A stretch of 64,000 nucleotides of DNA, taken from contig JALSGV010000044.1 in assembly GCA_026982565.1 (NCBI GenBank), positions 8,506 to 72,505 of the forward strand, written 5' to 3'. The DNA is from Gammaproteobacteria bacterium. GTDB taxonomy: Bacteria; Pseudomonadota; Gammaproteobacteria; SZUA-140. The position numbers and the translations under genes are program-made. Shown here piece after piece: positions 45,486-62,289 of this stretch. How positions within the stretch are numbered: the stretch's first letter is position 1; each line of letters starts with the position of its first letter. The notes beneath the pieces were generated by a model. The model did not search any database, was not told where the DNA came from, and saw nothing but the letters and a program-made list of their open reading frames with translations.

Positions 45486-45500
45486 GGCCAGAAGAAATTA

Positions 45501-45908
45501 TCAGGGGCTGACGCCGTGCGTTGGGGTTGAATTTCCACCGCCCCCTCCACCGCCGGCTACTGCGGCCAGCAAGGCCGCCAATCCGACGCCTACGCCAATA
45601 GCGATTTTGGAAACACCCTTACCTGACGTTGCAGCCTCCCCAGTCTCTCCAACGCCAGTTGTCGCCTCGGACCCAGGAGGCGACACATCAGAAGGGTCGG
45701 AAACAGGCGCTTCCGCTTCTTTGGATGGCTTTTCATCCGACCTGGGTTTGACGATCCCGATGGCGGCCGCCAACTGGACGGAGGCTTCGCCCTGACCCGG
45801 CGCCCGGGGCGGCGCACCCGCAAGGGACTGGGCCGCGAGATGAGGACTCGCAAAAACCAGAATCACGCACAAGGTAAAAACTCTATGCATTCGCATACTT
45901 CTGTTCAT
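45501..45908 (-). CDS. Small secreted Gly/Ala/Ser-rich protein (YjbE-like)
   Basis: 135 aa. Signal peptide, low-complexity G/A/S/T-rich body ending in a poly-Gly run. Sits immediately upstream of yjbH, as in E. coli yjbE-H. yjbF/G equivalents were not recognised. Confidence 0.45.
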   Translation of the reverse strand: MNRSMRMHRVFTLCVILVFASPHLAAQSLAGAPPRAPGQGEASVQLAAAIGIVKPRSDEKPSKEAEAPVSDPSDVSPPGSEATTGVGETGEAATSGKGVSKIAIGVGVGLAALLAAVAGGGGGGGNSTPTHGVSP

Positions 45909-46028
45909 GACCTACCCTCCCCCTGGCATCAGTCCCTGTTGAGTAACCCCTGAATCCGTAGGTTCAGGTAATCGATAGAGGCGATTGTATACACTTTTGA
46001 ACAAGGAAGCCAAATGGCTGACAAAGCC

Positions 46029-48038
46029 TCATTCATAAGTATGGAAAAAGCGCGTGATAAGCACATCCCGGCCCCGCTTTTCCACATCGATCTTCACCCG
46101 CCCCTTGACGGTCGTAATTGAAGGCTCCCCCTTCAGAAGCACCTTGACCTCGAAGCCCCCCTCCCCCTGGGCACGATCCTTCCCGCTTTGCGTCCATGTC
46201 AGGTCCTCGATAATAAACTGACGCTTTTCCGTTACTTCAAACAGCTCCCGATAGTCTCCGGCAATACCTTCTCTATCATTACGATCATTGGTGCGCGCAT
46301 CCTGGGCAAAAACACTCAATAACCCCCGCAGATCGCCCTCTTCATAGCTGCGCACAAAGACCCTCATCATGCTGTCCAGTTCTTCCTGTGGAATAGCTTC
46401 TATCCGGGGCGTTTCCATAAGGGGCGGCGGCGGTGGCAGACTGGCTATCCCCGTCACCGATTCGCCCCTGGATGGAACGTCGAATGTGGGAGCGGCGGAC
46501 TCCCCAGCGGGAAGCTGTTGGATTTTACCTTGCATCCCGGGTTGAACCGGCACGGCGGTGGGAACCGGTCCTGGAGCAAGCGGGACAGCAGGCTCCGCTG
46601 CCTTCATGGAAACAGCGGCGGGTTTCTCTACTTGCTTCTTAGCGGGTTTGCTTATCAGGGCCTCAACCCTTTTCTGCATCGGGGCGGGCACATTGACTGG
46701 AGCGGGCACGGGTGGCGTCTGAGATGTGCGCCGGGGCGACAAGGTCAAGCCGGTTACAACAGGCTCCTCACGGCGTTCGTCCGCGGGCGCCTTCTCTGTT
46801 GTAATTTTCTCCACGACCGGGGCTTCCTTCTTCTCCTCCACGACGCTCTGAAGCGGTTCTCTCTCCCCTTCAGACTGAGCAACGGGTCGTGAATCTCGCG
46901 GCTCCTCTTCCATTTCAGGGCTGGCTGGAACAGCGGCCTCCTCCTTAGGCACTCCCAATGGTTCCTTTTCCGGGGCCTCAGGAGAAATGGCTGCCGGGCC
47001 GACCGCATTCCCCGCAAGGACAGGCATTTCAGGCGCGGCCGCCGACGGCGCCCTTGCCGCGCCGGGATCCACCGTTCCATCTTCACTGAATAGCGCTGAC
47101 AACTGTCCCGGCGCTATCTGATATTCATAGACAGCCGCCAAAACGCCCACAAAGACAAGCAATGTGGCCAGTATCACCCCCCACCTGGCTGAAGAGCGGC
47201 CCCGGGACCTGTGCTGATAGGCTGCCTCGACTGCCGATCCAAGATCTTCATCGGCCACAATGGGAGCGATTTTGCTACTGCGCCTCCCTTCCTCTTCAAC
47301 GTCCGGCATCACAGGGGTGACCGGGGGCGCTGCCCGCACGCCCGCGTCGTTATAAGCGCGCTCAATACTGTCCGCAATAAAGGACTCTTCATCCTGAGCG
47401 GAGGCTACGGCGCTTGCCACGCCATTCTCACGAACTGCCGTTCCAGCTAACCCGCCCGGCAACGAAGCTCCGCTTCCGGCCACGCCTTCAGGCCGCGTTC
47501 CGGTTTGTTCAGGTTCATTTTTCTTTTTCACCTTGGCGAATGAAACGATGGAACGGGCAAAGGAATGCGTATCTTCCTTTTGTCTATTGATTTCCCCGCC
47601 GCCTGGCGATGGCCCAGCCTGGCGCAAATCATATTCGCGCCGTTTTGCAGGATCCCTCAGGATGGAATAGGCGCGGTTGATGCATTCAGCGAATTCGGCG
47701 CTCCACCCCTCCGCCATATCGTCCCTGTCCAGCATGAAAAGATGCATCAGCAAATGGTAGTGCCTGCGGATCTGCTCCTGGGTTGCGTGACGATCCACGC
47801 CCAAATGGCGATAATAGTCGCCACCCGGGACAAACAACACGCGCCCCACGAAGAAGGATGCCGCAGCCACCAATTCCTCGGATAGACGGCTTTCCGGATC
47901 CGCCGCGTCCTCGGCGGCAACCGTTTCCAGCAGCTTGCCGAGATCCTCGGGCAACGGCTTGTCCGGCCCGATCAGAGCAGCGAAATGCGAGGGGTCCTCG
48001 CGGAAATCCAGCACCAGCTGAAAGATGTCATATGTCAC
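46029..48038 (-). CDS. J-domain-like (degenerate HPD) membrane protein with Pro/Ala-rich linker and C-terminal NTF2/SnoaL-like domain
   Basis: 669 aa. N-terminal YYRHLGVDRHATQEQIRRHYHLLMHLFMLDRDD...INRAYSILRDPAKRREYD is J-domain-like, but HPD is replaced. One TM helix (WGVILATLLVFVGVLAAVY). Long PA-rich low-complexity region. C-terminal about 130-aa globular domain. Confidence 0.5.
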   Translation of the reverse strand: MTYDIFQLVLDFREDPSHFAALIGPDKPLPEDLGKLLETVAAEDAADPESRLSEELVAAASFFVGRVLFVPGGDYYRHLGVDRHATQEQIRRHYHLLMHLFMLDRDDMAEGWSAEFAECINRAYSILRDPAKRREYDLRQAGPSPGGGEINRQKEDTHSFARSIVSFAKVKKKNEPEQTGTRPEGVAGSGASLPGGLAGTAVRENGVASAVASAQDEESFIADSIERAYNDAGVRAAPPVTPVMPDVEEEGRRSSKIAPIVADEDLGSAVEAAYQHRSRGRSSARWGVILATLLVFVGVLAAVYEYQIAPGQLSALFSEDGTVDPGAARAPSAAAPEMPVLAGNAVGPAAISPEAPEKEPLGVPKEEAAVPASPEMEEEPRDSRPVAQSEGEREPLQSVVEEKKEAPVVEKITTEKAPADERREEPVVTGLTLSPRRTSQTPPVPAPVNVPAPMQKRVEALISKPAKKQVEKPAAVSMKAAEPAVPLAPGPVPTAVPVQPGMQGKIQQLPAGESAAPTFDVPSRGESVTGIASLPPPPPLMETPRIEAIPQEELDSMMRVFVRSYEEGDLRGLLSVFAQDARTNDRNDREGIAGDYRELFEVTEKRQFIIEDLTWTQSGKDRAQGEGGFEVKVLLKGEPSITTVKGRVKIDVEKRGRDVLITRFFHTYE

Positions 48039-48451: not shown

Positions 48452-50380
48452 TTGGAGCAAATCCGAACCATGAATCGTGCGCTGAACGTAGACTATGGCT
48501 TTCCCGCCCATGATACGTTGTATCAAGTTTTTGAGACCAAGGCCAAAACAAATCCATCCGATGCCGCCATCGAAGCGCCAAGCAGGGAAGCGCTCGACTT
48601 TTGGAATCTCGGCAAGCATATCAACGCCACGATCGCCTGCCTGAACGAGGCCGGCATCGGCCGGAATGACCGGGTCGCACTGGTACTTCCCAATGGTCCT
48701 GAAATGGGTGCGGCTTTCCTGGCCGTAGGCGCTGCAGCCACCTGCGCGCCACTCAATCCCGGATATCGTAAAAGTGAATTTGAGTTCTTTCTGTCTGACC
48801 TCAACGCCAAGGCGCTCCTGATTCAGGCGGGCATGGACTCTCCGGCCAGGGATGTGGCTGCTGAACGCAAGATACCCATCATAGAACTTCAACCCAGTCT
48901 GGATGACCCGGCGGGCGTTTTCTCCTTACGCTGCGGCACCCGCCACACTATCAGTCATGGAGGACCCGCGCAACCCGGTGACATAGCCCTGGTCCTGCAT
49001 ACCTCCGGGACAACATCAAGACCCAAGATCGTCCCACTGACGCACCGTAACATCTGTACCTCGGCCCATAATATCGGCCTTACGCTTGATTTGAGCAGTA
49101 AGGACCGCTGCCTGAATGTGATGCCCCTATTCCATATCCACGGGTTGATCGCCGGGATCCTTTCTTCCCTGGCCGCAGGCGGGAGCACGGTCTGCATGAG
49201 TAAATTTTCAGCCGCGGGATTTTTCGAGTTGCTGCATCAGTACAAGCCCAGCTGGTACACCGCCGTACCCACCATCCATCAGACCTTGTTGTCCAAACTG
49301 GACGAACACCGGGATCAACTCGAAAATCATCGCTTGCGATTCATTCGTTCCTCGTCTGCCGCCCTGCCGCCACAGGTGATGGCCGATCTGGAAGAAGCAT
49401 TTGGCGTTCCAGTCCTGGAGTCCTATGGCATGACCGAGGCTGCACATCAAATGGCCAGTAACCCACTTCCTCCCCTGACCCGCAAACCCGGCTCGGCCGG
49501 CCTGGCTGCGGGACCGGAGGTCGCCATCATGGATGAAAAAGGGAACCTGCTGCCCCCTGGCGAAAAAGGGGAAATCGTTATTCAAGGCGACAATATCACC
49601 AGCGGCTACGAAGGCAACGAACAGGCCAATGCCGAAGCCTTTACCAATGGCTGGTTCCGCACCGGCGACCAAGGCTACCTCGATAATGAGGGCTATCTTT
49701 TCATAACCGGACGGCTCAAGGAAATCATCAACAGAGGGGGAGAAAAGGTATCACCCAGGGAAATCGATGAGCTTCTCGTAGAACACCCCGATGTCTCGCA
49801 GGCTGTCGCCTTCGCCTTGCCCCATCCCTCACTGGGTGAGGACATCGCGGCCGCTGTTGTCCTGCACGAAGGAGCGAACCTCACAGAGGCCGCATTACGC
49901 GATTATCTTTTTGGAAAGATCGCCGACTTCAAGATTCCCAGCCAACTGCTGATCGTCGACATGATCCCCAAAGGTCCCACGGGAAAGGTACAACGAATCG
50001 GGCTGGCGGAAAAGTTCTCCGATCTTTTGACCCGCGACCACCTTGCCCCTGAAAGCGACCTGGAAAAAACCATCGCCGATATAATCAAGGAGGTCTTGGG
50101 CGCGGAAAATATCAGCATGAACGACAATTTCTTCGCATTGGGAGGAGATTCCATTCGCGCGACCCAGGCAGCCGCGCGCATTCGCGCCACGTTCCAGGTT
50201 GAACTCCCCATCATTACCCTGTTCAGAAAACCTACAGTCATCGAACTTGCAAACGAAGTTGCCCACCTGACAGAGAATAAAGGCGATGATGACATCGCCG
50301 ATATCCTGGCTGAACTGGAATCCATGTCCGATGAAGACGCGGAGCGCTTGCTCAATGAACTGGATGACACGGGCCGCTGA
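48452..50380 (+). CDS. Acyl-AMP ligase / acyl-CoA synthetase-like adenylating enzyme fused to a C-terminal carrier protein (A-T didomain) with acidic C-terminal tail
   Basis: 642 aa. AMP-binding core (LVLHTSGTTSRPKIVPLTHRN; YGMTE; GWFRTGDQGYLDNEGYLFITGRLKEIINRGGEKV). C-terminal PCP (FFALGGDSIRATQ). Tail DDDIADILAELESMSDEDAERLLNELDD. Confidence 0.8.
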   Translation: MEQIRTMNRALNVDYGFPAHDTLYQVFETKAKTNPSDAAIEAPSREALDFWNLGKHINATIACLNEAGIGRNDRVALVLPNGPEMGAAFLAVGAAATCAPLNPGYRKSEFEFFLSDLNAKALLIQAGMDSPARDVAAERKIPIIELQPSLDDPAGVFSLRCGTRHTISHGGPAQPGDIALVLHTSGTTSRPKIVPLTHRNICTSAHNIGLTLDLSSKDRCLNVMPLFHIHGLIAGILSSLAAGGSTVCMSKFSAAGFFELLHQYKPSWYTAVPTIHQTLLSKLDEHRDQLENHRLRFIRSSSAALPPQVMADLEEAFGVPVLESYGMTEAAHQMASNPLPPLTRKPGSAGLAAGPEVAIMDEKGNLLPPGEKGEIVIQGDNITSGYEGNEQANAEAFTNGWFRTGDQGYLDNEGYLFITGRLKEIINRGGEKVSPREIDELLVEHPDVSQAVAFALPHPSLGEDIAAAVVLHEGANLTEAALRDYLFGKIADFKIPSQLLIVDMIPKGPTGKVQRIGLAEKFSDLLTRDHLAPESDLEKTIADIIKEVLGAENISMNDNFFALGGDSIRATQAAARIRATFQVELPIITLFRKPTVIELANEVAHLTENKGDDDIADILAELESMSDEDAERLLNELDDTGR

Positions 50381-50452
50381 CCACCTGCAACAAATCCAGA
50401 AACACCCATAAAACCGCTCGGCAGTGAAGAAGGAATACGCAAGGATAAATAA

Positions 50453-52195
50453 ATGAAAGATGCCGCCAGAAAAACGGCGCCTAGTGACTTCGCCAACAAG
50501 CTTGCCACGCTTTCTCCCGCCAAGCGCGCCCTGCTCGACAAGCTCTCAGCCAAGGGAAAGCATGGCGGCAACACCCTGATAGCCAAAACTCTCAGGAGAC
50601 TGGGTATCTCGCATGCCTACTGTCTGGCGGGAACACCCATCCACAAGACAATGGGCGCCTGCATCAAGGAAGGCATCCGTGTTCTGGGTGTTCGGCATCA
50701 GCAGGCCGCTGTCATGATGTCCCTGGCACACAATTACACCACGGGGAAAATGACTTCCATCGCCATGGCTTCTTTCGGTCCTGCGGTTACCAACATGGTT
50801 ACGGGCGTCCTCAACGCCAGGGACGATTGCTGGCCACTTATCGTTATCGGCGGAAGACAACCCATCGATACCCAGCATATGGGCTGCTTCCAGGATCTGG
50901 ACGCCATCCCCATATTCAGCCCCATCACAAAGTGGACGGCCGCCGTGAGAAAAACGGAAGACATCCCTGAATATCTCGAACGCGCCTATCATATCGCCAC
51001 AGAGGGGAGACCCGGCCCCGTCTATCTTGACATCCCCGTCGAAAGCCTTGAAAGGTCAGCCACGCTACCCCCAAGCCCGGCGCGGGAAACAGCTCCTCCA
51101 CCGACGGTAGATACACAAAAGATTAAGCTGGCAGCGGATCTCCTGAGCAAAGCCATGCGTCCGGCCCTGCTTCTGGGGAAAGGCATTCGCTGGTCTATGC
51201 CCACGGAGGAGCTGTCCCGGCTCATCGGGAAACTCAACATGCCTTTCTCTGCCTCACCCATGGGCAGGGGCTATCTCCCTGACGATCATCCTCTGTGTTT
51301 CAATGGGCTGTCCACGGACCTCCAGGGTGGCGCCGATACCGTGATCATGGTCGGCGCCCGCATGAACTGGACATTCCGCTTTGGAAGTGAACTCGCCAAG
51401 GACGCTAAATTCATCCAGATTGATATCTGCCCAGATGAAATCGGCAGAAACATTACGCCAGACATCGGCATCGTGGGTGACATAAAAACAGTTCTGCAAG
51501 CCCTGCTGGCGGAAATTGAACACAGCAACCCCGCGGACGCCATAACCAAAGACAGATGTTCATGGGTCGAACACATGGACGCCCGGCGGAAAGAAAGAAA
51601 CAGCCAGATGCAGGCGCTTTCAAACAGCGACAATATCCCCATTTCTCCTCACCGTATGTGCAGGGAGATACGCGACTTCCTTCCAAGGAACGCCATCGTT
51701 ACCGTGGATGGGAGCACCATAATGGCTGCCGTACAACAAGTGATACCCAGTTATCTTCCGGCCAGCAGACTCACGGCGGGCGTCAATGGGTGCATGGGCA
51801 CTGCCGTCCCCTACGCCATTGGCGCCAAAATCGCCAACCCGGAGCGTCCTGTTATCGCTATCAGCGGCGATTCCGGATTTGGATTCAACGCCATGGAAAT
51901 GGAAATGGCGGTCAGGCACAGGGTCCCCGTAATATTTATTGTCGCCAACAACGGCGGCATTGTCGGCTCCGTCTTCCAGAACATCGTTGCTCCCGACTAC
52001 ACGGAAAGAACTGCTCTTTTCGAGCCGGGCATTCGTTATGAAAAAATCATGGAGGCCTTTGGCGGCCATTACGAGAGCGTGAGCCGGGCGGAGGAAATTG
52101 GCCCCGCATTGGCCCGGTCCGCCAACTCCGGCCTGCCGGCATGTGTCAATATTTTCATCGATCCTGACGTCCCTCCACTGGATCATATGGGATGA
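50453..52195 (+). CDS. Thiamine-pyrophosphate-dependent enzyme of the acetolactate-synthase / pyruvate-oxidase family with a short basic N-terminal extension
   Basis: 580 aa. The three-domain ALS-like layout is alignable (GISHAYCLAGTPIH...ASFGPAVTNMVTGVLNA...RPGPVYLDIP; C-terminal TPP-binding GDSGFGFNAMEMEMAV...VANNGG). Confidence 0.8.
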   Translation: MKDAARKTAPSDFANKLATLSPAKRALLDKLSAKGKHGGNTLIAKTLRRLGISHAYCLAGTPIHKTMGACIKEGIRVLGVRHQQAAVMMSLAHNYTTGKMTSIAMASFGPAVTNMVTGVLNARDDCWPLIVIGGRQPIDTQHMGCFQDLDAIPIFSPITKWTAAVRKTEDIPEYLERAYHIATEGRPGPVYLDIPVESLERSATLPPSPARETAPPPTVDTQKIKLAADLLSKAMRPALLLGKGIRWSMPTEELSRLIGKLNMPFSASPMGRGYLPDDHPLCFNGLSTDLQGGADTVIMVGARMNWTFRFGSELAKDAKFIQIDICPDEIGRNITPDIGIVGDIKTVLQALLAEIEHSNPADAITKDRCSWVEHMDARRKERNSQMQALSNSDNIPISPHRMCREIRDFLPRNAIVTVDGSTIMAAVQQVIPSYLPASRLTAGVNGCMGTAVPYAIGAKIANPERPVIAISGDSGFGFNAMEMEMAVRHRVPVIFIVANNGGIVGSVFQNIVAPDYTERTALFEPGIRYEKIMEAFGGHYESVSRAEEIGPALARSANSGLPACVNIFIDPDVPPLDHMG

Positions 52196-53178
52196 GCAGG
52201 ACATCTAAAATATCTCAAGCCCAGGATCATACAGCATGTAAAACCGGGAGACAGAAAATGACTATTCACCAGTACGGCGAAAGATTAAGAGACACCACCA
52301 GGAACTCTGACATCACCACCTTCACAGGTGTCTATGATGTATTCTCTGCTTCCATCGCCGCGAAGTACAACGATGGAATCTTTGTCAGCGGCTTCGGCTT
52401 TGCAGCAAGCTTCTATGGCCTTCCAGACGTTGGGTTTATTGCGTGGCCGGACATGGTTTCCTACGTACAAAGAATGCGCACCATACTTCCCGACCATCAT
52501 ATCCTGGTTGATATCGACGACGGTTACTGTGATACGGAAGTGGCATGCCATGTTGTCTCGCTGCTTGAATCCGTAGGCGCATCCGGCATCATCATGGAAG
52601 ATCAGCTCAGGCCACGCCGCTGTGGGCATGTGGATGGCAAGCAGATCATGGAACTCGACCAATTCATGGCCAAACTGGACAAGGTCATGTCGGTGCGCCA
52701 GGATATTTTCGTCGTGGCGCGTACGGATGCATCGGATCCCGAGGACATTATCAAAAGGGTCAGGGCCTTCTCGAGCGCGGGAGTAGATGCCATTCTTGTC
52801 GACGGATTGCGTGATCTGCAATTTCTGAAAACCATAAAAAGCCAGTTTGATCAGCCGCTCATGTTCAACCAGATCGCTGGCGGAAAATCCCAGCCCTGCG
52901 ACCTAGATGAACTCAAGTCGCTGGGCGTCTCTCTTGTCAACTATAGCACCCCCTGCCTCTTTGCCGCGCAGACAGCTATTGAAGACACGATGAAATTTCT
53001 CCAGAAAAGCAACGGACGGCTTCCAGATCAGTCTCAGCAAAGAACATGCTTGTGCGAATGCAATGAGGTCTTGAGCGAAAACCTTTCCAGAAGAGACAAA
53101 AACAAGGAAACACTTCGGCCTCCCAGGCTCCAGGATGTGCAAATTTCCACGCCTCGCAAGAAACGGGCTGCGCTCTGA
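52192..53178 (+). CDS. Isocitrate lyase / PEP mutase-superfamily protein (methylisocitrate-lyase-like; not a PEP mutase)
   Basis: VDIDDGYC and IIMEDQLRPRRCGH (the ICL/MICL-type K/R-R-CGH catalytic loop), VVARTDA. It lacks the PepM-specific EDKx5NS motif. 4-bp overlap with the upstream TPP-enzyme gene. Confidence 0.75.
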   Translation: MSRTSKISQAQDHTACKTGRQKMTIHQYGERLRDTTRNSDITTFTGVYDVFSASIAAKYNDGIFVSGFGFAASFYGLPDVGFIAWPDMVSYVQRMRTILPDHHILVDIDDGYCDTEVACHVVSLLESVGASGIIMEDQLRPRRCGHVDGKQIMELDQFMAKLDKVMSVRQDIFVVARTDASDPEDIIKRVRAFSSAGVDAILVDGLRDLQFLKTIKSQFDQPLMFNQIAGGKSQPCDLDELKSLGVSLVNYSTPCLFAAQTAIEDTMKFLQKSNGRLPDQSQQRTCLCECNEVLSENLSRRDKNKETLRPPRLQDVQISTPRKKRAAL

Positions 53179-53213
53179 TGTCACAATTCATAAGCAGGAT
53201 CCAGAACACTTAA

Positions 53214-56200
53214 ATGTCCACCCTAGAGAACAAACTCGCGTCGCTCTCTTCTGAACAACGCGCGGCATTGGCAAAAAGACTGAAAAACAAACAGGGAAAG
53301 TCTGGCCAGTCTCCCTGCCGGGACAGCATCCCACAAAGACAGAGATCCGAGGACACGCCTCTTTCACACGCACAGCAACGTCTGTGGTTTCTGGACCAGA
53401 TGGACCCAGGAAGCCCCTTGTACAACCTGCACCTGACCCTTGACCTGAAAGGATCCTTGGATACCATCGCGCTACAGAAATCGCTCGATGTGATCATCGA
53501 GCGTCATGAATCCCTGCGAACCATTTTCAGGACGGAAAACAACCTAACGATCCAGAAAGTCCTGCCAGAGCACAGGCTACACATCAAAATCAGTGACCTG
53601 TCTCATCTTCCACCCTGGGAACGAGAGAAACAGGCCCGCAGCGTGATCATCGATGAAGCCAGCATTCCTTTCGACCTGTCGGATCGCCCGCCACTCCGCG
53701 CGTCTCTTCTAAAACTTGAAAAGGACCATCACGTCTTCTTCATAATAATCCACCATATTATCGTCGATGGATGGTCACTCGGCATATTTCAGGAAGAACT
53801 GGAAAAGCTCTATGATGGGTTCTGCAGAAACACTGTACCTGGCCTTCCCGACCTGCCCATCCAATACACCGACTTCTCCTTATGGCAGCGCGAATATCTG
53901 CAGGATCACATGATCGAGCGGCAATTTAATTATTGGCGTGAAAAAATGTCTGGCGCTGCGCCACTGCTCGACCTTCCCTCAGACAAACCCAGGCCCGCCG
54001 TCAAGACCATCAATGGCGCGCGCCAATCCGTCTTTATAGACGACATGCTGACCAGGAAATTGAATGAACTATGCCGGAAAGAGCAAGTCACGCTCTACAT
54101 GGTCCTATTAAGCGCCTACCAGATACTTCTGCACCGCTATTCCGGAAAAGACGATATTATCGTGGGATCACCTATTGCCGGGCGAATCCGGCCGGAATTC
54201 GAAAATCTGATCGGCTTCTTTGTCAACGCGCTTATCATGCGCACCGACCTTTCTGGAAACCCCTCCTTTCTGGAATTGCTGAAGCGTGTCCAGAAAACGG
54301 CGCTGGAGGCATATGACAACCAGGATATTCCTTTCGAAAAACTGGTTGAAAAATTGAAACCCCAGCGCAACCTGTCCTATTCACCCATATACCAAGTGGC
54401 ATTTGCCTTTCAGAACATGCACATCAAGCCGATCAGGCTGAGAAGGCTGAGCGTATCCACATTGGAAATCGACAGGGGCACTGCCGCTTTCGACCTCTCT
54501 CTGTTCGTTCTCAATACAGAACGTGGCCTGAAGGTCATGATGGAATACAACACGGATCTGTTCGAGCATCAGACAGCTGAACGCATGCTGGGTCATTACC
54601 TGGTACTACTCAACGCCATCGTGGAAACACCTGGGGAATCCATCGGCAAGCTTCCCCTCCTGAAAAAAGACGAGAGGGAAACGATGCTCTCCAGGTGGAA
54701 CCAAACCCAGGCTGACTACCCGCGTGACAAGAGCCTCGTCGCCCTGTTTCAGGAACAAGCCGGGATCGCCACCAGCAAAATCGCCGTAGCTAACGAGGAA
54801 GGCGGCTACACCTATGGCCAACTCAATGAAATGGCCAACCAACTGGCGCGCCATCTGATAGCACAGGGAGGCAGGCCTGGCGAAATCATTGGCCTGTGCC
54901 TGGACCGCTCCATTGAGATGTTTGTCGGCATGCTCGGAATTCTCAAGACAGGAGCGGCCTACCTCCCCCTTGATCCCGATTATCCCCGAGAAAGACTGAA
55001 GTTCATGGCCAGGGACTGCAATGTTTCAAGGGTTGTCACCCTGGAAAAACACCGGGATATCACCTCCGGGTTCCATACAAAAACGATTTCCCTCGATATG
55101 GAGTGGCATGAGATAGCCATCCAGCCCGGAGACAACCTGGATATAAATATCAATCCCGGGGACCTGTGTTACGTTATCTATACATCCGGCTCCACCGGGA
55201 TGCCCAAAGGGGTGCTCATCGAACATGGGAATATCGTCCACTCGACATGCGCCCGCATGGACTACTACCCTGATCCCGTAGAGCGTTTTATCCTTCTATC
55301 TTCATTCTCCTTCGACAGTTCCGTTGCGGGGATATTCTGGACCTTGTGCCAGGGCGGAACCCTGGTGCTTCCTGGTCAGGGCGACGAAAAGGACCTGCAC
55401 AAGATCGCCACCCTCATCCACCATCACCAGCCATCCCATATGCTATGCCTGCCCTCGGTCCATGGGCTGCTGCTGGATACGGCCTCACCCGGTCAACTTT
55501 CATCCCTGAGGACCGTTATCGTCGCAGGAGAAACCTGTCCGGTTTCTCTCGTGCAAAAACATGCCGAAAAACTTCCTCACAGCAGGCTCTATAACGAATA
55601 CGGCCCCACGGAAGGCACGGTATGGAGCACTGTTTACAGCGTTGACCTCCAGAACCCGCCGAGGCACCACATACCAATAGGGAAACCCATTCAGAATGTT
55701 CAGGCCTACATTCTGGACAAAAATCTGCAAGCTGTTCCCATAGGCGTCACGGGAGAGTTGCATATAGCCGGTGAGGGGCTGGCCAGAGGCTACCTGAACA
55801 ATGATGTCTACAACCGGACAAAATTTATCCGGCTACCCCTGCACGAGGGCGGAAGAAAAACCCGCCTGTACAAGACAGGCGACCTGGCCCGATACCTCCC
55901 TGACGGTAATATTGTCTATATGGGAAGAACAGACGCCCAGGTAAAGCTGAGAGGCTACCGGATCGAGCTGGGCGAAATAGAAAGCGCCATCGCCACCCAC
56001 CCGAAAGTCAGGGAAACAGCCGTCATTGTCCGCGAAGACAGGCCGGGAGACAAACGCCTCACTGCCTATATCGCGCCACGACAGGGCACGCAGCCAAACC
56101 AAGGCATGATCCGCGCCTATCTAGAGGAAAAACTTCCGGCGTACATGATCCCATCCACATTCGTTTTTATCGATGGATTCAAACTGACTCCCAACGGAAA

Positions 56201-57386
56201 GGTTGACAAAAATGCCCTGCCCGAACCCCACGATATATCCCCTGAACATGAAGAGCAATACATTGCGCCGCGCAATAATACAGAGTCCATTCTGGAAGAA
56301 ATCTGGGCGGAAACCCTCGGCCTCGAAAAAGTGGGCGCAAAAGATAACTTTTTCAATCTTGGGGGCCATTCACTGCTCGGAGTCTCACTACTGAACAACG
56401 TCGAAAAGAACTTCGGGAAACGCCTTCCCATATCCTCACTTTTCAAGGCGCCTACCATCGAGGGCATGGCCCGCCTGCTGGATGCGGAAAGTGGAGCAAT
56501 GGCTGACACGACTTCCCCGGAAACCGGCAAACAGTGGGAAACGCTTGTCGCCATAAAGCCGGAAGGGAAGCGCACCCCCTTTTTCTGCGTTCACGGCAGG
56601 GCACATTCCCTCTCGCAGTACATGCACGAAGAACAACCTTTCTACTGGCTGCACCATGGGCAGGATGCCAAGCGCACAAAATATCTTTCCGTGGAAGCAA
56701 TAGCCGATATCCACCTGCGGGAGATCAGAACCGTCCAGCCAGCAGGGCCATATTACATAGGCGGTTTCTCATTCGGCGGCATGGTTGCTTTTGAGATGGC
56801 GCAGAAACTCATCAATGAAGGGGAGGAGATTGCCGTGCTGGCCCTTTTCGACCCGACTCTGGTCGGAAAATTTTCCCATGGGTCAGGGAATAAAAGCAAA
56901 TTACACGCGTTCTTGAGCCGCCTGAAAAAAGAACAGTCATCTACCGGAAAAATCCAACAGATCCTGGATATAACCCACTCCAGGGCGCGACGGCTCAGGC
57001 ACAACCTCTCGGAACAATCCAAATCCATCATCTGCAAGGCTTGCATGTCCCTGGACAGGCCGGTTCCGGCCCCGCTGGCGGTCTTCAACCTGATACGGAT
57101 GTTCAAACAAGCCGCCTCACAATATGAATACAAGCCCTATCCTGGGCCTGTCACCATGTTCGTCCCCGAAAGCTATCACAAACGGGAGAGGCTGCTTGAG
57201 AACCTGAAAGCAAGATGGTCTGATATCGCCCGGCAAGGCGTGGAATTCCGCTTCGTCAAGGGAGCAACGTCCCACCACAAAATGGTTGAGGAGCCTTTTG
57301 TCAGAGACCTGGTCGAGCAACTGGAGGATTGTCTCATGAGCGCATCGGGCGAACACGGCTTGAACCAGGAAAAGCGGCCCAAATGA
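53214..57386 (+). CDS. Single-module nonribosomal peptide synthetase: condensation (starter-type) - adenylation - thiolation - thioesterase
   Basis: 1390 aa. C domain: [22 protein letters not shown]. A domain: [80 protein letters not shown]. T domain: [14 protein letters not shown]. TE domain: [12 protein letters not shown]. Confidence 0.9.
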   Translation: [1390 protein letters not shown]

Positions 57387-57393
57387 CAAGCTC

Positions 57394-58113
57394 TTGCCAG
57401 TTCCCATGCCAGGAAAACCAGATACAAGCCAGGGACTGATATCGGCGGGGACAGGCGAAATTCATGTCTGGAGGGCGTCTCTGAATGCGGCCACTCCCCT
57501 CGCGCAGGAGTTCATCGCCATTCTTGACGACGAGGAACGGCGCAGGTCGGAGGGGTTCATCCATCATTCAGACAGGGCGGATTATATCGCGAGACGGGCA
57601 ATACTCCGCTTAGTCATCTCAAGATACACAGGCAATGAGCCGCGATCCCACCGCTTCCAGCGCGGCAAACACGGCAAACCGTTCCTCTGCAATCCGCAAA
57701 ACAGGGCGGGCATCCAATTCAACCTTTCTTTTTCAGGCCACCACCTGCTCATAGCAGTCACCGCAAGACAACCCGTGGGCGTGGACATTGAGCGCGCCCA
57801 GACACATATCGACCACCTGGATATTGCCAGGCTCTACTTCCCGGAAGAAGAGTACGAATATATACGTCAACAGCCCCCCCCACAGCAAACCGCGGCGTTC
57901 TATAGAATATGGACAATGAAAGAAGCCTATGTAAAAGCTCTTGGGCAAGGCATGTCATTGGACCTGAAGAAATTCACGGTTCTGAATGCAGACAGAAAAA
58001 ACACATGCCCGGAAATTCGGGAAATCCCCACGGAACAGGGTTATTACGCGGCAATCGCACTCATGGGTAAGATAACAAAGCTCTCCTTCATGGAACTCTC
58101 CCAAATCATGTGA
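57394..58113 (+). CDS. Sfp-type 4'-phosphopantetheinyl transferase
   Basis: 239 aa; GKP...FNLSFSGHHLL...VGVDIE...W..KEAYVKALG core motifs. Follows the NRPS by 8 bp. Confidence 0.8.
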   Translation: MPVPMPGKPDTSQGLISAGTGEIHVWRASLNAATPLAQEFIAILDDEERRRSEGFIHHSDRADYIARRAILRLVISRYTGNEPRSHRFQRGKHGKPFLCNPQNRAGIQFNLSFSGHHLLIAVTARQPVGVDIERAQTHIDHLDIARLYFPEEEYEYIRQQPPPQQTAAFYRIWTMKEAYVKALGQGMSLDLKKFTVLNADRKNTCPEIREIPTEQGYYAAIALMGKITKLSFMELSQIM

Positions 58114-58208
58114 ACGGTCAGCGATGAGGGCAGCGGCCCCTAAGAAGGCTGCAGGTACAGGATTTATGGACTCTTCAGCAGAATTTGCAGGTTGCCACCG
58201 TTCTAACT

Positions 58209-58236
58209 TCCTCTTCCTCCGGAGGGAGAGGGGACC
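58209..58236. repeat. REP-like element copy 4 (CCTCTTCCTCCGGAGGGAGAGGGGACCC) in the convergent gap between the PPTase and sulfotransferase genes
   Basis: Shares the CTCCCTCCGGAGGGAGA(A/G)GGGAC core with copy 3. Confidence 0.5.
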
Positions 58237-58276: not shown

Positions 58277-59059
58277 TTATTCAACAGAAGTTGATAATCT
58301 CCCGGCCTGTTCGAGCGCCTGCCTCAGCGCCTCGTAATTTCCGATGTAGTCTTCAGGCCCCTTTGTAGCCTGGCGTTTGATTTCCCCTTGCTCTTTTTCC
58401 ATGTCCGTTTTATCACAGTCCAGCAATTGAAGGCCTGCTTCCAGCGCGTTATCCTGATGGCGTAGAAAATCTTCATAATATACCCTGACATAAGGATTGG
58501 TTACCGACAGTGCGGCAAGCCGTGTATCCACCCAGTCTTTGGAGATAACACGCTTGATGGCCTCCCGGATGGAGATCCTGACTTTCAGGTCCTCGGGGTA
58601 AGCCTTTCCAACATAGCTGTTTGTCAGGCTTGCAAGATATTTGGAACACAACCAGGCAATATTATCACGGCGGACGATATGAATAACCGCAATGTCTTGC
58701 CTGCTTGAGATCCAGCCGAGGTGACGCGCAAACTGATCAACCCAGAGCGCGGGTGACAGCCTGGGTGAAAACAACCACTTGTTGGAAGCCCTGAACAAAC
58801 GCCGATACCCGATCCACGCGGGTTTTTTTCTCAGCAAGCCTTCGATATGCTGCCTCTCCCTGTCCGGCAGGCGGGAAAAATCCCCATTCAGGGCGCTCTC
58901 CGCCAAACCGGGCTTGTCAGAAAAATATTCTTTCTGGAACCATTCCCAGCCACATGCAATATCGGGGTGCATATTCATCAATTCGGCATATGCACTACTC
59001 CCGGTGCGTTGAGTGCCGACTATAATAAAGTGCTTCATAATATCGGGGAACTCAAGCAC
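58277..59059 (-). CDS. Sulfotransferase-family protein
   Basis: 260 aa; N-terminal P-loop-like PAPS 5'-phosphosulfate-binding motif IIVGTQRTGSS (compare xGxxRSGTT). Size typical of Stf0/Sulfotransfer_3 enzymes. Confidence 0.6.
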   Translation of the reverse strand: MLEFPDIMKHFIIVGTQRTGSSAYAELMNMHPDIACGWEWFQKEYFSDKPGLAESALNGDFSRLPDRERQHIEGLLRKKPAWIGYRRLFRASNKWLFSPRLSPALWVDQFARHLGWISSRQDIAVIHIVRRDNIAWLCSKYLASLTNSYVGKAYPEDLKVRISIREAIKRVISKDWVDTRLAALSVTNPYVRVYYEDFLRHQDNALEAGLQLLDCDKTDMEKEQGEIKRQATKGPEDYIGNYEALRQALEQAGRLSTSVE

Positions 59060-60215
59060 CCCGCCCCTCTATCACCGCCATCAACTGGTTCACATTGGAG
59101 AGATCATGCTCATTCAGGGCATGACGCCGCGCCGCTTCCCCCATTCCAACCCGCTGCCGCTCATTTTCCAAAAGCTGCGCCACACGACTCTTCATTTCCT
59201 CGAAAGTCTTGCCGCAGAACCCAATCTTCCCTTCTTCAAGGATCCCATCCGTATCAATACCCAGGCTTACAACGGGAACGCATCTCATCCATGCCTGAAT
59301 GAAAGTATTTGGAAACCCTTCCAAAAGGCTCGTATTCACAAAGATATGCGCAGCCGCCATCAGCCGGTTAACCTCATCCTGCGTCTTCTCGCCCAGATAT
59401 CTCAGATTGCCCAGTTGCTCAATCTCGCGGTGAAGATCACCGTATAGCCTGGCGTCACCCGCGCGCCCCGCCATCACAAACTCGACATCAGACATATGCC
59501 CAAGCTCCCTGGCAAGCCTTACGAACAACTCGGGCCGCTTCACGCGCTTGAAATTGGCCACCCAGAGCACCTTCAGTGGAAGCGGCTTCTCCAGCGACTC
59601 CAATGGCCTGGGATGAAAATTCCTTATAACCGCGTCCGCCTCCCTCCCGAAGTTTCTTTTCAAAAGTGTTTTCTGCCTGCGGGTCTGCGTGACGATAGCG
59701 CTGGCATGGCGAATACCATGGCTACCGATTTTCTTGTCAATAAACGGAACATTGTAACCTGGCAGTCTCCACAACTCAGGAACAGTCATCACATCAAGGT
59801 CTGAGGCAATGTGGAGCACCATTCTCGCCTTGTTTTTTCTTGCATAGTGGGCGGCTATGCCCGTATAGGCGGTAAATCCCCGCTGATAAATGATATCCGG
59901 CGAGATTCCGCCGAGCACTTTCATAAGGGCCGGATAGTCCGCCACGAACCCCATCCGCTTGAGGTAACGGCTGGCAGGCACCTTTACAATTTCATAACCG
60001 ACTGGCTCAAACCCAGGATCAATGTTCCTCGCCACATAATAAATCTCGTACTCGTCCCGCTTTACGAAGCTCTCCAGCAATATCCTTGCCTGATACTGTG
60101 CGCCACCGTGAACCGCCGAGAAATGCGACATCAAAAGGAAACATAATCTTTTCTTGCGTTTTTCCATATTCAGCGCTGTGGGCGTGTCAGATGGAAGTCT
60201 CACTTTCCACGGCAA
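59052..60215 (-). CDS. Glycosyltransferase family 4 (GT-B, RfaG-like)
   Basis: 387 aa; the C-terminal Glycos_transf_1 domain has FVNTSLLEGFPNTFIQAWMRCVPVVS (E-x7-E). Overlaps the neighbouring gene ends, indicating an operon. Confidence 0.75.
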   Translation of the reverse strand: MPWKVRLPSDTPTALNMEKRKKRLCFLLMSHFSAVHGGAQYQARILLESFVKRDEYEIYYVARNIDPGFEPVGYEIVKVPASRYLKRMGFVADYPALMKVLGGISPDIIYQRGFTAYTGIAAHYARKNKARMVLHIASDLDVMTVPELWRLPGYNVPFIDKKIGSHGIRHASAIVTQTRRQKTLLKRNFGREADAVIRNFHPRPLESLEKPLPLKVLWVANFKRVKRPELFVRLARELGHMSDVEFVMAGRAGDARLYGDLHREIEQLGNLRYLGEKTQDEVNRLMAAAHIFVNTSLLEGFPNTFIQAWMRCVPVVSLGIDTDGILEEGKIGFCGKTFEEMKSRVAQLLENERQRVGMGEAARRHALNEHDLSNVNQLMAVIEGRGA

Positions 60216-61474
60216 GCTTCCCGGTAACGATTCTCCACCAGGTCGGCAATTTTTTCATAGCTGCGCTGCCCGAGTACATATGCCCTTCCCCTTTCCCCCA
60301 TTTCCTCGGCCTCACCAGGGTTTTCCAGAAGCTCAACAACAGCCCTGGCAAAAGCCGCCTCATCATAGGCGACACAAACACCGCCCCGGCTTTCACGCAG
60401 GACCATTTCCTGCTCGGGGTGGTCATTAGCCACCACGGGCCGGCCCAGCGCCATATATTCAACCACCTTGGTTGGAGAAGTGGAATTCAGAATTGGCGTT
60501 GGATAGAAGGGCGACACACAGACTTTCGCGCCCCGCACGTATTTCAATGCATCCTTCTGCGGAAGAAACCCGGTAATCACCACCGCATCTTCCATGTTCA
60601 AGCGCCTGGCCTCATTCCTGATGACAGCCGTGTCTTCCGGGTCCTCTCCATCGCCAACCAGGTACAGCCTTGCCCCTGGCCGCGACTTAGTTACAAGCGC
60701 CATCACCCTGACCAGAAAATCAATCCTTCTTTCCCTGATGAGCGTACCCAGATATACGACTCTCTCCTCGGAGTCCTGCGTCACGCAGGCATCCTCCTCC
60801 CTTACCAGCCCGGAGATTTTCTTCATGCTGACGCCCATGGGAACCGCGGTCAGTTTGCTTTCTGCAATCCCTTCCCTGGCAACATCCCTCTTCATCTGTT
60901 CACTCTGCACGAAAACCTCATCGGCAAAGGGCATGATGACTTTATAGAGCAGAAACTTGAACATCATACCGCGAAAGCGGTAGAACACGGGATAGCGGGC
61001 CGAGCCTTCCTCAGCGGCATAGAGCGAGGCCTCAGGAAAAGGGTAGGACAACCAATAGAAGAAACGCGTGTCGTTCAGCTTTGCCGCCAGAATTCCAACC
61101 AGCGCCACGAGAAACTGGTCCTTGACCTGTATAAAATCATATTGATTCCCATGCGCCAGTTTCAACATCTTGAATGAATGAAAAAGATTATAAATGTGCT
61201 TTCTCAAACGGCAGAGCCGCGTCCCGCCATTATCGGTCCGCCCTACCCATACGCGGCCACCCTTCCATTGCGTACAATATGAACGCGCGCAGGTTTCCTC
61301 CGACTGCAGGATCCAGTCAATGCCGTGCCCCCTGGAAGCAAGCTCTTCACCAAACAGAACGGCAACATCCACCCGGAAAGGCGGAAACTTGTCCGCGGAG
61401 CAGAAAAGAAACTTCAGATTTCCCTTGTTTTCATTCATCGCAGCCAGATCTCCCGGATCGAAGGCCGGGTTCAT
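60200..61474 (-). CDS. Glycosyltransferase family 4 (GT-B)
   Basis: 424 aa; VCVSPFYPTPILNSTSPTKVVEYMALGRPVVANDH (E-x7-E-like region) and an N-terminal Glyco_trans_4-like domain. Confidence 0.75.
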   Translation of the reverse strand: MNPAFDPGDLAAMNENKGNLKFLFCSADKFPPFRVDVAVLFGEELASRGHGIDWILQSEETCARSYCTQWKGGRVWVGRTDNGGTRLCRLRKHIYNLFHSFKMLKLAHGNQYDFIQVKDQFLVALVGILAAKLNDTRFFYWLSYPFPEASLYAAEEGSARYPVFYRFRGMMFKFLLYKVIMPFADEVFVQSEQMKRDVAREGIAESKLTAVPMGVSMKKISGLVREEDACVTQDSEERVVYLGTLIRERRIDFLVRVMALVTKSRPGARLYLVGDGEDPEDTAVIRNEARRLNMEDAVVITGFLPQKDALKYVRGAKVCVSPFYPTPILNSTSPTKVVEYMALGRPVVANDHPEQEMVLRESRGGVCVAYDEAAFARAVVELLENPGEAEEMGERGRAYVLGQRSYEKIADLVENRYREACRGK

Positions 61475-62289
61475 GATTGGACCGGCAGAGCGGGAGAAAC
61501 AGACAACAAGGACCTGGCCTGCGTATAAACTGGCATACAGATATCGCTGACCATGTCATGCGCCCTCTGCGGCAACCGCTCCGCCTTTTTGATGCTTTTT
61601 TTATTGATCGGGCTGATATATTGCGACTTGAAAGGCAGGTCGATGAAATCATAGATCTGATCGAACAAGGCTGCGCTGTCAGAAACAAGCTCATCATAGT
61701 CGACAACCATGACGTCATCCCCAAGCTCCCTTTTAATTTCGAAAAGCTGCATGGTTTTCCCCTTGTAGGCCAGGCAGGCCCTGCGCGCCCGCCCGACCAT
61801 TATCAGACCAAGGCGTTCATAGCGTCTCTTTTCATCACCTTCGAGATACCCGGCGCCACAAGCCTCGAACAATTCATTGAGCGCGAAGCGGCTCCAGTTA
61901 TACAGCATGGAATGAATGACTGAATAGGGGTTTCTCAACACCCAGATCAGGCGAAATCCGCCCTTGTGCTGAAAATACTCATGAAAACACTCATTGAGAT
62001 AGGTTGTCTGGAAACAATAGCGGCCGGGGGCAATGGAAAACCCCTTTTTATTTCCAGAAAGAATAAGCGCCGCATCCAGCTCGTCGTCAGGGCCAGTCCA
62101 ATAGTCCACCATGCCTTCACTCTTGAAAATGATCCGGGCGAGCATGGTCGTTCCCGAACGCTGACAGCCGCTCACCAAAACGGCATTGGGAAAATCACCA
62201 AGATTTTTCAGGAGATGACACCCGCCAGACCTGACATGGCGCGCAAATTTCCGCCACGTACCTATTTCATGGCTCCCGTATCGCAACAT
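61471..62289 (-). CDS. Sulfotransferase-family protein
   Basis: 272 aa; VLVSGCQRSGTTMLARI matches the PAPS-binding 5'-PSB loop. First gene of a four-gene minus-strand operon (ST-GT-GT-ST). Confidence 0.7.
   Translation of the reverse strand: MLRYGSHEIGTWRKFARHVRSGGCHLLKNLGDFPNAVLVSGCQRSGTTMLARIIFKSEGMVDYWTGPDDELDAALILSGNKKGFSIAPGRYCFQTTYLNECFHEYFQHKGGFRLIWVLRNPYSVIHSMLYNWSRFALNELFEACGAGYLEGDEKRRYERLGLIMVGRARRACLAYKGKTMQLFEIKRELGDDVMVVDYDELVSDSAALFDQIYDFIDLPFKSQYISPINKKSIKKAERLPQRAHDMVSDICMPVYTQARSLLSVSPALPVQS

Follow-up and report, generated by a model that had tools for sequence, protein, structure and literature searches.

Nonribosomal peptide synthetases (NRPSs) can be started with a unit other than an amino acid. 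Lipo-initiation lines are primed by an acyl ligase and an acyl carrier protein (ACP), LgrA is primed by a formyl-transferase, and in the naphthyridinomycin and quinocarcin lines a glycolyl-S-ACP is made from ketose phosphates in a thiamine diphosphate (ThDP)-dependent manner by transketolase/E1-E2-type proteins. Oxalate serves as an acyl donor in grass pea, where oxalyl-CoA made by AAE3 N-oxalylates diaminopropionate on the way to beta-ODAP. In an engineered cascade of OXS, the oxalyl-CoA decarboxylase (OXC) variant Y497A and a thioesterase, oxalate and aldehydes are converted to 2-hydroxy acids (PMC7154664, PMC8411744). Here we describe a five-gene operon within a 64,000-nucleotide stretch (the window) of contig JALSGV010000044.1 from a Gammaproteobacteria bacterium (assembly GCA_026982565.1) which, judged from its sequences, is an NRPS system with a new starter logic. 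Our reading, held with moderate confidence, is that the operon encodes an oxalate-primed NRPS that yields an N-acyl-histidine from an oxalate-derived starter. Homology, residue conservation and gene linkage were established directly, and from these we infer the enzyme activities, the docking and the final acyl group.

Five co-oriented open reading frames (ORFs) on the + strand make up the operon. That at 48452-50380 matches Pfam AMP-binding, AMP-binding_C and PP-binding; that at 50453-52195 matches all three of TPP_enzyme_N, M and C; that at 52192-53178 matches PEP_mutase/ICL; that at 53214-57386 matches Condensation, AMP-binding, PP-binding and Thioesterase; and that at 57394-58113 matches ACPS and AASDHPPT_N. 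A preliminary description of this DNA, made from the letters alone, had listed five co-oriented genes of these families, and the ORF listing, the Pfam matches and the conservation of the operon elsewhere all agree with it. Its picture of a compact NRPS operon also stands, with a stand-alone adenylation-thiolation (A-T) loader, a condensation-adenylation-thiolation-thioesterase (C-A-T-TE) module, a ThDP enzyme, an isocitrate lyase (ICL)-family C-C lyase and a dedicated Sfp-type 4'-phosphopantetheinyl transferase (PPTase). The operon is identical on two independent metagenome contigs (L001 and L002) and recurs at 65-88% identity in L090. In the metagenome-assembled genome (MAG) Gammaproteobacteria bacterium SZUA-140 (L003/L007) it is found at 56-84% identity, with the ThDP gene relocated behind the NRPS gene. 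Conservation despite this change in gene order speaks for the operon as a functional unit and shows its genes to be real rather than chance ORFs.

The loading didomain and the lyase

The first gene (48470-50380, + strand) is predicted to encode an oxalate-activating A domain fused to a T domain, on the basis of its Pfam domains, its solved relatives, its acyl pocket and the T-domain motif GGDSI. When the A domain was compared with all solved structures, the top match was the Lathyrus oxalyl-CoA synthetase (6QJZ, 438.9 bits, E 3e-130), followed by Arabidopsis AAE3 (5IE0, 437.2 bits) and yeast Pcs60 (8AFF, 378.5 bits). The next families were much weaker (LgrA 256, FadD13 217 and malonyl-CoA synthetase 193 bits). 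In AtAAE3 the oxalate pocket is formed by Val215-His216, Cys288-Ser289, Ala313-Met314, His319 and Lys500, of which Ser289, His319 and Lys500 contact oxalate directly (PMC8905533). At these positions the window ligase has I-H, S-S, G-M, H and K, with no change in the three that contact oxalate; the neighbouring His214 is likewise retained.

The nine-residue pattern H-I-H-S-S-G-M-H-K (His214 plus the pocket) is found in 24 further orthologues from at least eight phyla, one of which has Cys at the fourth position, as in AtAAE3. These pocket-bearing orthologues span the cyanobacteria, Burkholderiales, Methylococcales, Planctomycetota, Gemmatimonadota, Rhodothermaceae, Bacillota and others. In a library of 1.84 billion proteins the pocket is present in 57 of the 150 best cluster representatives; summed scores in that search favour multi-module NRPSs and its raw counts give no family size, and only the pocket-filtered count is used here. 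Most of the pocket-bearing representatives (46/57) are larger NRPSs that carry the oxalate-type A domain at the N-terminus, as the loading module. Nine are 700-1000 amino acids long, and the one of these scanned, P0310, has the order A-T-TE. The library candidates also include fused A(ox)-T-C proteins, and P0253 carries A(ox)-T-C-A-T-TE on one polypeptide, which is the logic of the window minus the ThDP enzyme. By these comparisons the A domain belongs to the AAE3/oxalyl-CoA synthetase (OCS)/Pcs60 clade of oxalate-CoA ligases and is predicted to act within an NRPS loading didomain. The fused PP-binding domain and docking-type tail do not fit a stand-alone ligase for free CoA, and the A-T protein would instead adenylate oxalate and load itself as oxalyl-S-T.

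The preliminary description had taken this protein for a fatty-acyl-AMP ligase (FAAL) in a lipo-initiation system, which gives way here to an oxalyl-CoA-synthetase homologue with a conserved oxalate pocket. Under the fatty-acid reading the FAAL would load a fatty acid and a lipo-amino acid would be released, with the ThDP and ICL-family enzymes as decoration and neighbouring sulfo- and glycosyltransferases as tailoring enzymes; an A-T protein followed by C-A-T-TE and a PPTase is indeed an architecture like that of lipo-initiation systems. However, no FAAL/FadD32-type enzyme is among the 60 solved-structure matches listed, where oxalate ligases come first, and the alignment with AAE3 is collinear (residues 21-522 against 4-510), without a FAAL-type insertion. 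In NCBIfam the protein is closest to the FadD7 family rather than FAAL, at a score under the cut-off. The acyl pocket corresponds to a closed, polar oxalate pocket, and the supposed tailoring genes are convergent, lie past a terminator-like site and keep company with the cluster only among close relatives. We give this reading very little credence.

The lyase gene (52258-53178, + strand) encodes a C-C lyase of 306 amino acids in the ICL/phosphoenolpyruvate (PEP) mutase superfamily. Its best solved relatives are petal death protein (PDP, 119 bits), a Bacillus methylisocitrate lyase (MICL)-like protein, 2,3-dimethylmalate lyase (DMML) and oxaloacetate acetylhydrolase (OAH). The gating loop EDQLRPRRCGH carries the catalytic Cys and aligns with KKCGH/KRCGH of PDP, DMML, OAH and MICL. 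Both this loop and DIDDGY, the Mg-binding Asp cluster, are invariant in 14 subfamily members, which places the protein in the C-C lyase branch, and its scores against isocitrate lyase equivalog models are far under the cut-offs. Ser230 (in YSTP), likewise invariant in the 14 members, falls in a column that is Ser in OAH (3LYE) and PDP (Ser257) and Pro in DMML and three MICL-type structures. An active-site serine was reportedly proposed by Joosten et al. in 2008 as a sequence marker of OAH activity. Together, the relatives, the Cys loop and Ser230 predict that the lyase is an OAH and would form oxalate.

A Pfam PEP_mutase match adjoining a ThDP enzyme gene could also point to a phosphonate pathway, in which PEP mutase and a ThDP-dependent phosphonopyruvate decarboxylase feed the NRPS. 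We rejected this as extremely improbable. The PEP mutase motif EDKxxxxxNS is missing, with EDQLRPRRCGH in its place, the score against the PEP mutase model TIGR02320 is 66.7 bits versus a cut-off of 319.6, and the ThDP enzyme, with all three domains, is a homologue of 2-hydroxyacyl-CoA lyase (HACL; HACL/S for lyase/synthase) and OXC, not a phosphonopyruvate decarboxylase.

The starter could also be a different small acid of the 2-oxo or 2-hydroxy type (glyoxylate, pyruvate, glycolate or tartronate) that the lyase sets free and the ligase loads, with the HACL-type enzyme cleaving or extending a T-bound 2-hydroxyacyl group in the classical HACL manner. ICL-family lyases do release glyoxylate or pyruvate besides oxalate, the signature of the ThDP enzyme is that of HACL and not OXC, and the ligase departs from AAE3 at three positions lining the pocket. 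Set against this, the three oxalate-contact residues of AtAAE3 are invariant across phyla, and the lyase has the Ser of oxalate-forming members, not the Pro of the pyruvate-forming DMML and MICL. Pyruvate and glyoxylate are, moreover, common metabolites for which a dedicated lyase would be unnecessary. A starter other than oxalate thus seems unlikely, though not negligibly so.

Gene linkage was followed with a GTDB scan for the lyase subfamily (52-65% identity), which gave at least 600 pattern matches, at least 511 of them encoding a relative; 80 loci were kept. In ~20 distinct loci of these 80 the lyase adjoins an orthologue of the oxalate-type ligase (52-62% identity), and an NRPS C-A-T usually comes next. 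The pair is found upstream of NRPS modules in the cyanobacteria, Burkholderiales, Methylococcales, Planctomycetota, Gemmatimonadota, Rhodothermaceae and Bacillota.

The scan brought up other arrangements of the lyase. In a second context (L012, L016-L018, L020-L022, L024-L026, L029, L031, L035, L036, L038, L042, L064 and L076) it stands with a T-less AMP-ligase that has another pocket, F-G-H-G-S-G-I-S-K; the Accumulibacter locus L017 adds a 463-amino-acid protein with no Pfam match and a membrane protein of the sulfatase family (LTA-synthase-like). Elsewhere the lyase accompanies an A-T-TE tridomain of 830-900 amino acids with the oxalate pocket and with no C domain or NRPS nearby, as in L006/L023 (Nostoc linckia), L010 (Nostoc sp. 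FACHB-152) and L019 (a gammaproteobacterial MAG); P0310, P0307, P0333 and others belong to the same A-T-TE class. Such a pair could be a stand-alone oxalyl-transfer or oxalyl-release system. In Lusitaniella coriacea (L005) a gene of the dihydroxy-acid dehydratase family (ILVD_EDD, 6043-7728) lies immediately upstream of the oxalate A-T gene, the lyase gene and a 4190-amino-acid NRPS.

The ThDP enzyme, the NRPS module and the fate of the starter

The second gene (50453-52195, + strand) had been labelled acetolactate synthase (ALS)-like. Its best solved relatives are HACL/S structures (6XN8, 346 bits, E 3e-102; 8VZA, 342 bits), the score against E. coli OXC is 266 bits, and no acetolactate synthase exceeds 186 bits, the ALS structures ranking under HACL, OXC and glyoxylate carboligase. 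An AlphaFold2 model (mean pLDDT 80, pTM 0.81) gave the same picture, with all of the top 48 Foldseek matches being HACL/S or OXC (TM ~0.83). The ALS models of NCBIfam are well under their cut-offs (for example TIGR00118, 286 versus 538), and scores against the OXC equivalog models are under theirs. The ALS-like label was therefore dropped; by alignment and predicted fold, the enzyme is in the thioester-acting HACL/S-OXC family.

In the alignment with E. coli OXC, Phe-Gln (in GCFQD) replaces the OXC Tyr-Glu, and GxFQ[DE] together with a short C-terminus is seen in 120/120 closest database homologues. The column equivalent to Tyr497 of MeOXC lies inside a 3-residue deletion. The C-terminal segment with Ser568 and the CoA-covering lid is absent, the protein stopping 11 residues past the last strand (…IDPDVPPLDHMG; subfamily consensus …VDPxAPYPxD), and the protein has no equivalents of Tyr483 and Ser553. 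The proton relay of OXC proper (MeOXC Tyr-Glu 134/135, Tyr497 and Ser568) is thus not present. In ApbHACL/S a C-terminal covering peptide contacts the acyl-CoA through R545, K546, Q548 and W552 (PMC11271303); an RKxQxxxW-like segment is absent from the C-terminus of the window enzyme, the residue mapping here being approximate. Tyr-Glu versus Phe-Gln is the single difference between OXC and HACL in the lower active site (Burgener et al., PMC7154664). Removal of Tyr497 switches OXC from protonation, with release of formyl-CoA, to carboligation, ~400-fold (PMC7154664), and E135G, Y497F and S568G show a like trend (Nattermann et al., PMC8411744). The window enzyme naturally lacks these residues, the loss of which favours carboligation in OXC.

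An oxalyl-CoA synthetase with OXC constitutes a known CoA-dependent route of oxalate degradation, and the two genes might be such a catabolic pair that happens to lie beside an unrelated NRPS. This is hard to reconcile with a ligase that carries a fused T domain and docking tail, and with a ThDP enzyme that has neither the OXC catalytic residues nor the CoA lid. An oxalate-forming lyase would render a catabolic route futile, and the linkage to NRPS C-A-T genes recurs across phyla, gene fusions included. We regard a catabolic pair as barely credible.

Where the flanks are sufficient, ThDP subfamily members always come directly after an A-T ligase and adjoin an NRPS C-A-T gene, and the ligase is oxalate-type in every case for which the DNA was at hand. 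These contexts are the window, L003/L007, L070, L088, L089, L090 and a JGI contig; two short contigs show part of the arrangement (ligase-T then ThDP in L015, lyase and ThDP in L033). The neighbourhood search that the preliminary description had advised thus finds the ThDP/ICL-family pair recurring beside NRPS genes, together with some ThDP contexts lacking the lyase: in L088 and the JGI contig there is no lyase gene within the ~10 kb shown on either side. A ThDP gene is missing from the majority of oxalate-cassette clusters.

Short terminal motifs offer a way to bring these proteins together. The A-T protein carries a C-terminal docking-type tail (50291-50377, + strand; DIADILAELESMSDEDAERLLNELDDTGR) that ends in the acidic stretch ILAELESMSDEDAERLLNEL, and the pattern LxELExLSDEEAxxLL follows the T domain in the stand-alone A-T orthologues of L003, L028, L070, L075, L089 and L090. 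The ThDP enzyme has an N-terminal extension (50486-50551, + strand; ANKLATLSPAKRALLDKL), which the AlphaFold2 model folds into two helices, at residues 12-18 and 22-33, in front of the catalytic core. The extension is absent from E. coli OXC and common to the cluster-linked homologues, and about half of the 120 closest homologues have it, with ~30 residues and the motif IAxLSPEKRxLL. The ThDP enzymes start ...LATLSPAKRALLDKL, and the N-terminus of the window NRPS carries the like motif KLASLSSEQRAALAKRL, as do the first NRPS subunits of L003, L005, L008, L014, L028, L037, L039, L057 and L070. The motif LSPxKRALL is thus N-terminal in the first NRPS subunit as well as in the ThDP enzymes; NRPS subunits further downstream have TubC_N-type N-termini instead. 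The ThDP enzyme and the NRPS would both dock on the A-T tail, in which case the ThDP enzyme would act on T-bound oxalyl and not on a CoA ester.

The NRPS gene (53214-57386, + strand) encodes a single C-A-T-TE module of 1390 amino acids, in which the docking-type motif lies at approximately 53226-53288, C at 53349-54686, A at 54747-56201, T at 56292-56480 and TE at 56667-57383. The catalytic motifs are intact (C HHIIVDG, T GGHSL, TE GFSFGG). The specificity code of the A domain, whose extraction had been suggested as a check, is DSACIAEVWK in the window and L090 and DSASIAEVWK in L003. The code positions were set by hand from conserved A-domain motifs, GrsA numbering and a MAFFT alignment of 36 A domains, in which other domains had recognisable Pro, Thr, Gly and Val-type codes. 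DSALIAEVWK is listed for histidine, whose codes stand clearly apart from all others (PMC12283262). The window code is identical to it at 9 of 10 positions, and L-histidine is therefore the predicted substrate of the A domain.

The C domain had been described as a starter-C. In a neighbour-joining tree of this data set, which did not include reference starter-C sequences, it groups with elongation C domains. The first C domains of oxalate cassettes, with and without a ThDP gene, are mixed with ordinary elongation C domains in this tree, and this intermixing leaves a special starter-C clade unsupported.

Other oxalate-cassette modules differ in build. A cyanobacterial one in L089 (15235-20262) has the order C-Formyl_trans_N-C-A-T, and an equivalent insertion of ~1.7 kb lies between C and A in L028 (10941-16013) and also in L009 and L011. 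The A code of the Formyl_trans-type module is DAELIGTVVK, and we take the Glu at its third position to suggest a basic substrate. The peptides fed by the oxalate cassette thus include larger ones, possibly of a siderophore-like kind.

The ligase, the ThDP enzyme and the lyase all converge on oxalate, which argues for one oxalate-based route in place of the generic trimming of keto- or hydroxy-acids that had been assigned to the lyase and the ThDP enzyme. In such a route the lyase would hydrolyse oxaloacetate to oxalate and acetate. The A-T protein, its phosphopantetheine arm installed by the PPTase of the operon, would adenylate the oxalate and load it onto that arm to give oxalyl-S-T. The ThDP enzyme, recruited to the acidic A-T tail via the N-terminal helical motif that it shares with the NRPS, would then attack the oxalyl thioester and decarboxylate it, leaving a ThDP-bound formyl-thioester carbanion. 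Protonation of this carbanion would give formyl-S-T, and capture by a cellular aldehyde or ketone would give 2-hydroxyacyl-S-T. The C domain would move the small acyl group onto L-His loaded by the A domain, and the TE would release the N-acyl-histidine as formyl-, 2-hydroxyacyl- or, where the ThDP step is bypassed, oxalyl-His. Of the product expected earlier, an N-acyl amino acid or lipo-amino acid with an unusual keto- or hydroxy-acid moiety, the N-acyl amino acid is still predicted, its acyl group being small, unusual and derived from an acid, and the lipo part falls away with the identification of the ligase as an oxalyl-CoA-synthetase homologue. The 2-hydroxyacyl outcome may be ranked slightly above formyl, because the OXC proton-relay residues are absent from the HACL-like site. 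Its full form, a natural carrier-protein decarboxylative C1 carboligation in which oxalyl-S-T is a masked formyl anion that the docked ThDP enzyme adds to a cellular aldehyde or ketone to make a 2-hydroxyacyl starter, we put forward only tentatively.

A simpler product would be N-oxalyl-His, with the C domain taking oxalyl-S-T directly and the ThDP enzyme an accessory that, for example, clears mis-loaded or hydrolysis-prone oxalyl thioester or tunes the oxalyl/formyl ratio. The ThDP gene is absent from most oxalate-cassette clusters, where the C domain must use oxalyl-S-T, and the A(ox)-T-C and A(ox)-T-C-A-T-TE fusions exist. The mixing of first C domains from clusters with and without the gene, and the poor decarboxylation of oxalyl-CoA by HACL-signature enzymes, are also in its favour. 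However, the ThDP gene is kept inside the operon in at least seven independent contexts, between the A-T and NRPS genes or, in L003, after the NRPS gene, and in the window and about half of the subfamily its product has the N-terminal motif of the NRPS acceptor subunit, which suggests an on-line step and not housekeeping. We therefore consider N-oxalyl-His as the product, with the ThDP enzyme an accessory, rather improbable, but with a meaningful chance of being right.

Several points weigh against the oxalate-primed reading with an on-line ThDP step. The ligase shares only ~45% identity with the plant enzymes, and its pocket lining has three conservative changes (V>I, C>S, A>G), so that a near-isosteric acid such as glyoxylate or oxamate could be loaded instead. 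The lyase is only ~30% identical to characterised OAH and PDP, and its subfamily is also found solitary in actinomycetes and beside a different, T-less ligase in Accumulibacter, Verrucomicrobia and others; given these other contexts, its substrate is deduced mainly from the partner ligase. Human HACL, which also has Phe-Gln, decarboxylates oxalyl-CoA only slowly (PMC7154664), and this makes the ThDP step on oxalyl-S-T uncertain. The evidence for docking consists of shared motifs, and no A-T-ThDP fusion was found, the intermediate-length candidates checked being A-T-C or A-T-TE. No gene for supply of an aldehyde acceptor was found in the operon, and the C domains of clusters with and without the ThDP gene, unseparated in the tree, give no independent sign of a changed donor.

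Operon boundaries and the rest of the window

The ligase ORF opens with TTG at 48452 and its called start is the ATG at 48470; gene callers and homologue N-termini together place the ligase start there and support 52258 for the lyase and 57406 for the PPTase. The spacing is then +72 bp (ligase/ThDP), +62 bp (ThDP/lyase), +35 bp (lyase/NRPS) and +19 bp (NRPS/PPTase), in place of the overlaps of 4-8 bp given in the preliminary description. The sole possible overlap, of 4 bp, requires the long lyase ORF that starts at 52192, which is unsupported: an exact sequence look-up of this form had no match, and the 306-amino-acid form is 100% identical to P0001.

The last gene (57406-58113, + strand) encodes an Sfp/HetI-type PPTase. 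It matches PF01648 at 73.9 bits and PF22624 at 38.2 bits, the pairing of ACPS with an AASDHPPT-type N-terminal domain that is typical of Sfp-type enzymes, and its best NCBIfam match is HetI (144 bits, under the equivalog cut-off). A terminator-like hairpin (58208-58233, + strand), with an 11-bp stem and a T-rich tail, starts 95 bp past the PPTase stop and would close the operon; it is a consensus match, and the only intergenic one of the two + strand sites in the scan. An Rfam scan of the operon and leader gave zero matches, and promoter scores over the operon were not above those of shuffles.

Genes on the - strand flank the operon on both sides. To the left (40448-48038) are a Wza-like Poly_export/SLBB protein, YjbH, an uncharacterised protein of 135 amino acids and a DnaJ-domain protein of 669 amino acids, a block that is syntenic in L003 and L090. 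To the right (58277-62289) are a sulfotransferase, two GT1 glycosyltransferases and a second sulfotransferase. The flanks suggest a sulfated exopolysaccharide locus. Tailoring of the product by the neighbouring sulfo- and glycosyltransferases, as had been proposed, finds no support: these genes are convergent to the operon, lie past the hairpin and go with the Wza/YjbH polysaccharide block, and the flank genes accompany the operon only in close gammaproteobacterial relatives and not in cyanobacterial or other clusters. They are a separate convergent unit outside the cluster.

In L003 a Sulfotransfer_3 gene (17755-18507, +) lies on the same strand, 13 bp past the PPTase gene. Orthology to the window sulfotransferases was considered and rejected, as it is homologous to neither; sulfation of the product in the SZUA-140 relative is possible. 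Elsewhere in the window, positions 12000-28000 form a low-GC island (46-53% versus ~60% in its flanks) with defence-type genes, namely those for two GMT-wHTH proteins, the Res subunit and Mod methylase of a type III restriction system, an abortive-infection protein (AIPR), an AAA_13/SMC-like ATPase and a helicase of the SNF2 family. The island probably serves defence and arrived by horizontal transfer. At 1684-4791 (- strand) an ORF of 1035 amino acids joins a complete 2-oxoacid dehydrogenase E2 (two lipoyl domains, an E3-binding domain and the catalytic domain) to a complete E3 dihydrolipoamide dehydrogenase, a fusion that is unusual if it is not a frameshift or assembly artefact.

Significance and comparison with known systems

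In the full-text library searched, from which subscription journals are largely missing, we found no description of an oxalate-loading NRPS module or of a HACL/OXC enzyme in an NRPS cluster, and zero mentions of an oxalyl carrier-protein thioester or an oxalyl starter. If correct, the proposal would provide a new route to the starter units of NRPSs, and the ThDP enzyme would be the first of the HACL/OXC family to act on a thioester bound to a protein. NRPSs are supplied by the oxalate A-T cassette in cyanobacteria, Proteobacteria, Gemmatimonadota, Planctomycetota and others, and peptides that are N-oxalylated or otherwise derived from oxalate would then form an undescribed class, large and phylogenetically broad, defined by oxalate-loading A-T modules. 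On this reading, standard genome mining would be mislabelling an entire class of NRPS loading modules as generic acyl-CoA ligase or 'CAL' starters, when they would prime peptides with oxalate or with a C1 or 2-hydroxyacyl unit derived from it. N-oxalylglycine and N-oxalyl-D-phenylalanine are 2-oxoglutarate mimics and oxygenase inhibitors. An oxalyl- or hydroxyacyl-histidine would be a plausible metal ligand, and the products could have distinctive biology. The HACL/OXC family is being engineered for one-carbon extension, which lends the ThDP enzyme interest for biocatalysis; as a natural member with a carrier-bound oxalyl donor it would widen the sequence space available and give the synthetic oxalate-to-hydroxy-acid cascade a precedent in nature. 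With only five genes, the operon is of a size suited to direct heterologous expression.

The window ligase belongs to the same adenylating family as the plant and yeast oxalyl-CoA synthetases (AtAAE3, LsOCS and Pcs60) and has the same oxalate pocket. As in the grass-pea beta-ODAP route, an activated oxalyl thioester is predicted to N-acylate an amino acid. The differences are that the acceptor in the window would be a fused carrier and not free CoA, that the amide would be formed by an NRPS C domain in place of a BAHD acyltransferase, that the host is a bacterium, and that a ThDP enzyme stands between loading and condensation. The lyase resembles OAH, petal death protein and 2,3-dimethylmalate lyase in its Mg-binding aspartates and Cys gating loop and shares its Ser with the oxalate-forming members of the superfamily, but at ~30% identity it belongs to a separate, widespread bacterial subfamily.

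The ThDP enzyme has the fold of the OXC/HACL family and its closest sequences are found there; it differs from them in a substrate that is presumably protein-tethered, in a truncated CoA lid and in a docking-type N-terminal extension. Like the engineered OXS-OXC-YciA cascade, the operon holds oxalate activation, a ThDP C1 enzyme and a thioesterase. In common with lipo-initiation and LgrA it would pass a non-amino-acid starter to the first C domain, and an N-formyl peptide made from formyl-S-T would resemble that of LgrA. Here, though, the starter would be a C2 diacid or its C1 or 2-hydroxyacyl derivative, and not a fatty acid as in lipo-initiation, and a formyl group would come from oxalate decarboxylation, not from formyl-tetrahydrofolate as for LgrA. 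The naphthyridinomycin and quinocarcin systems also have a ThDP enzyme making a small hydroxyacyl group on a carrier for an NRPS; the window would differ from them in using a HACL/OXC homologue on an oxalyl thioester.

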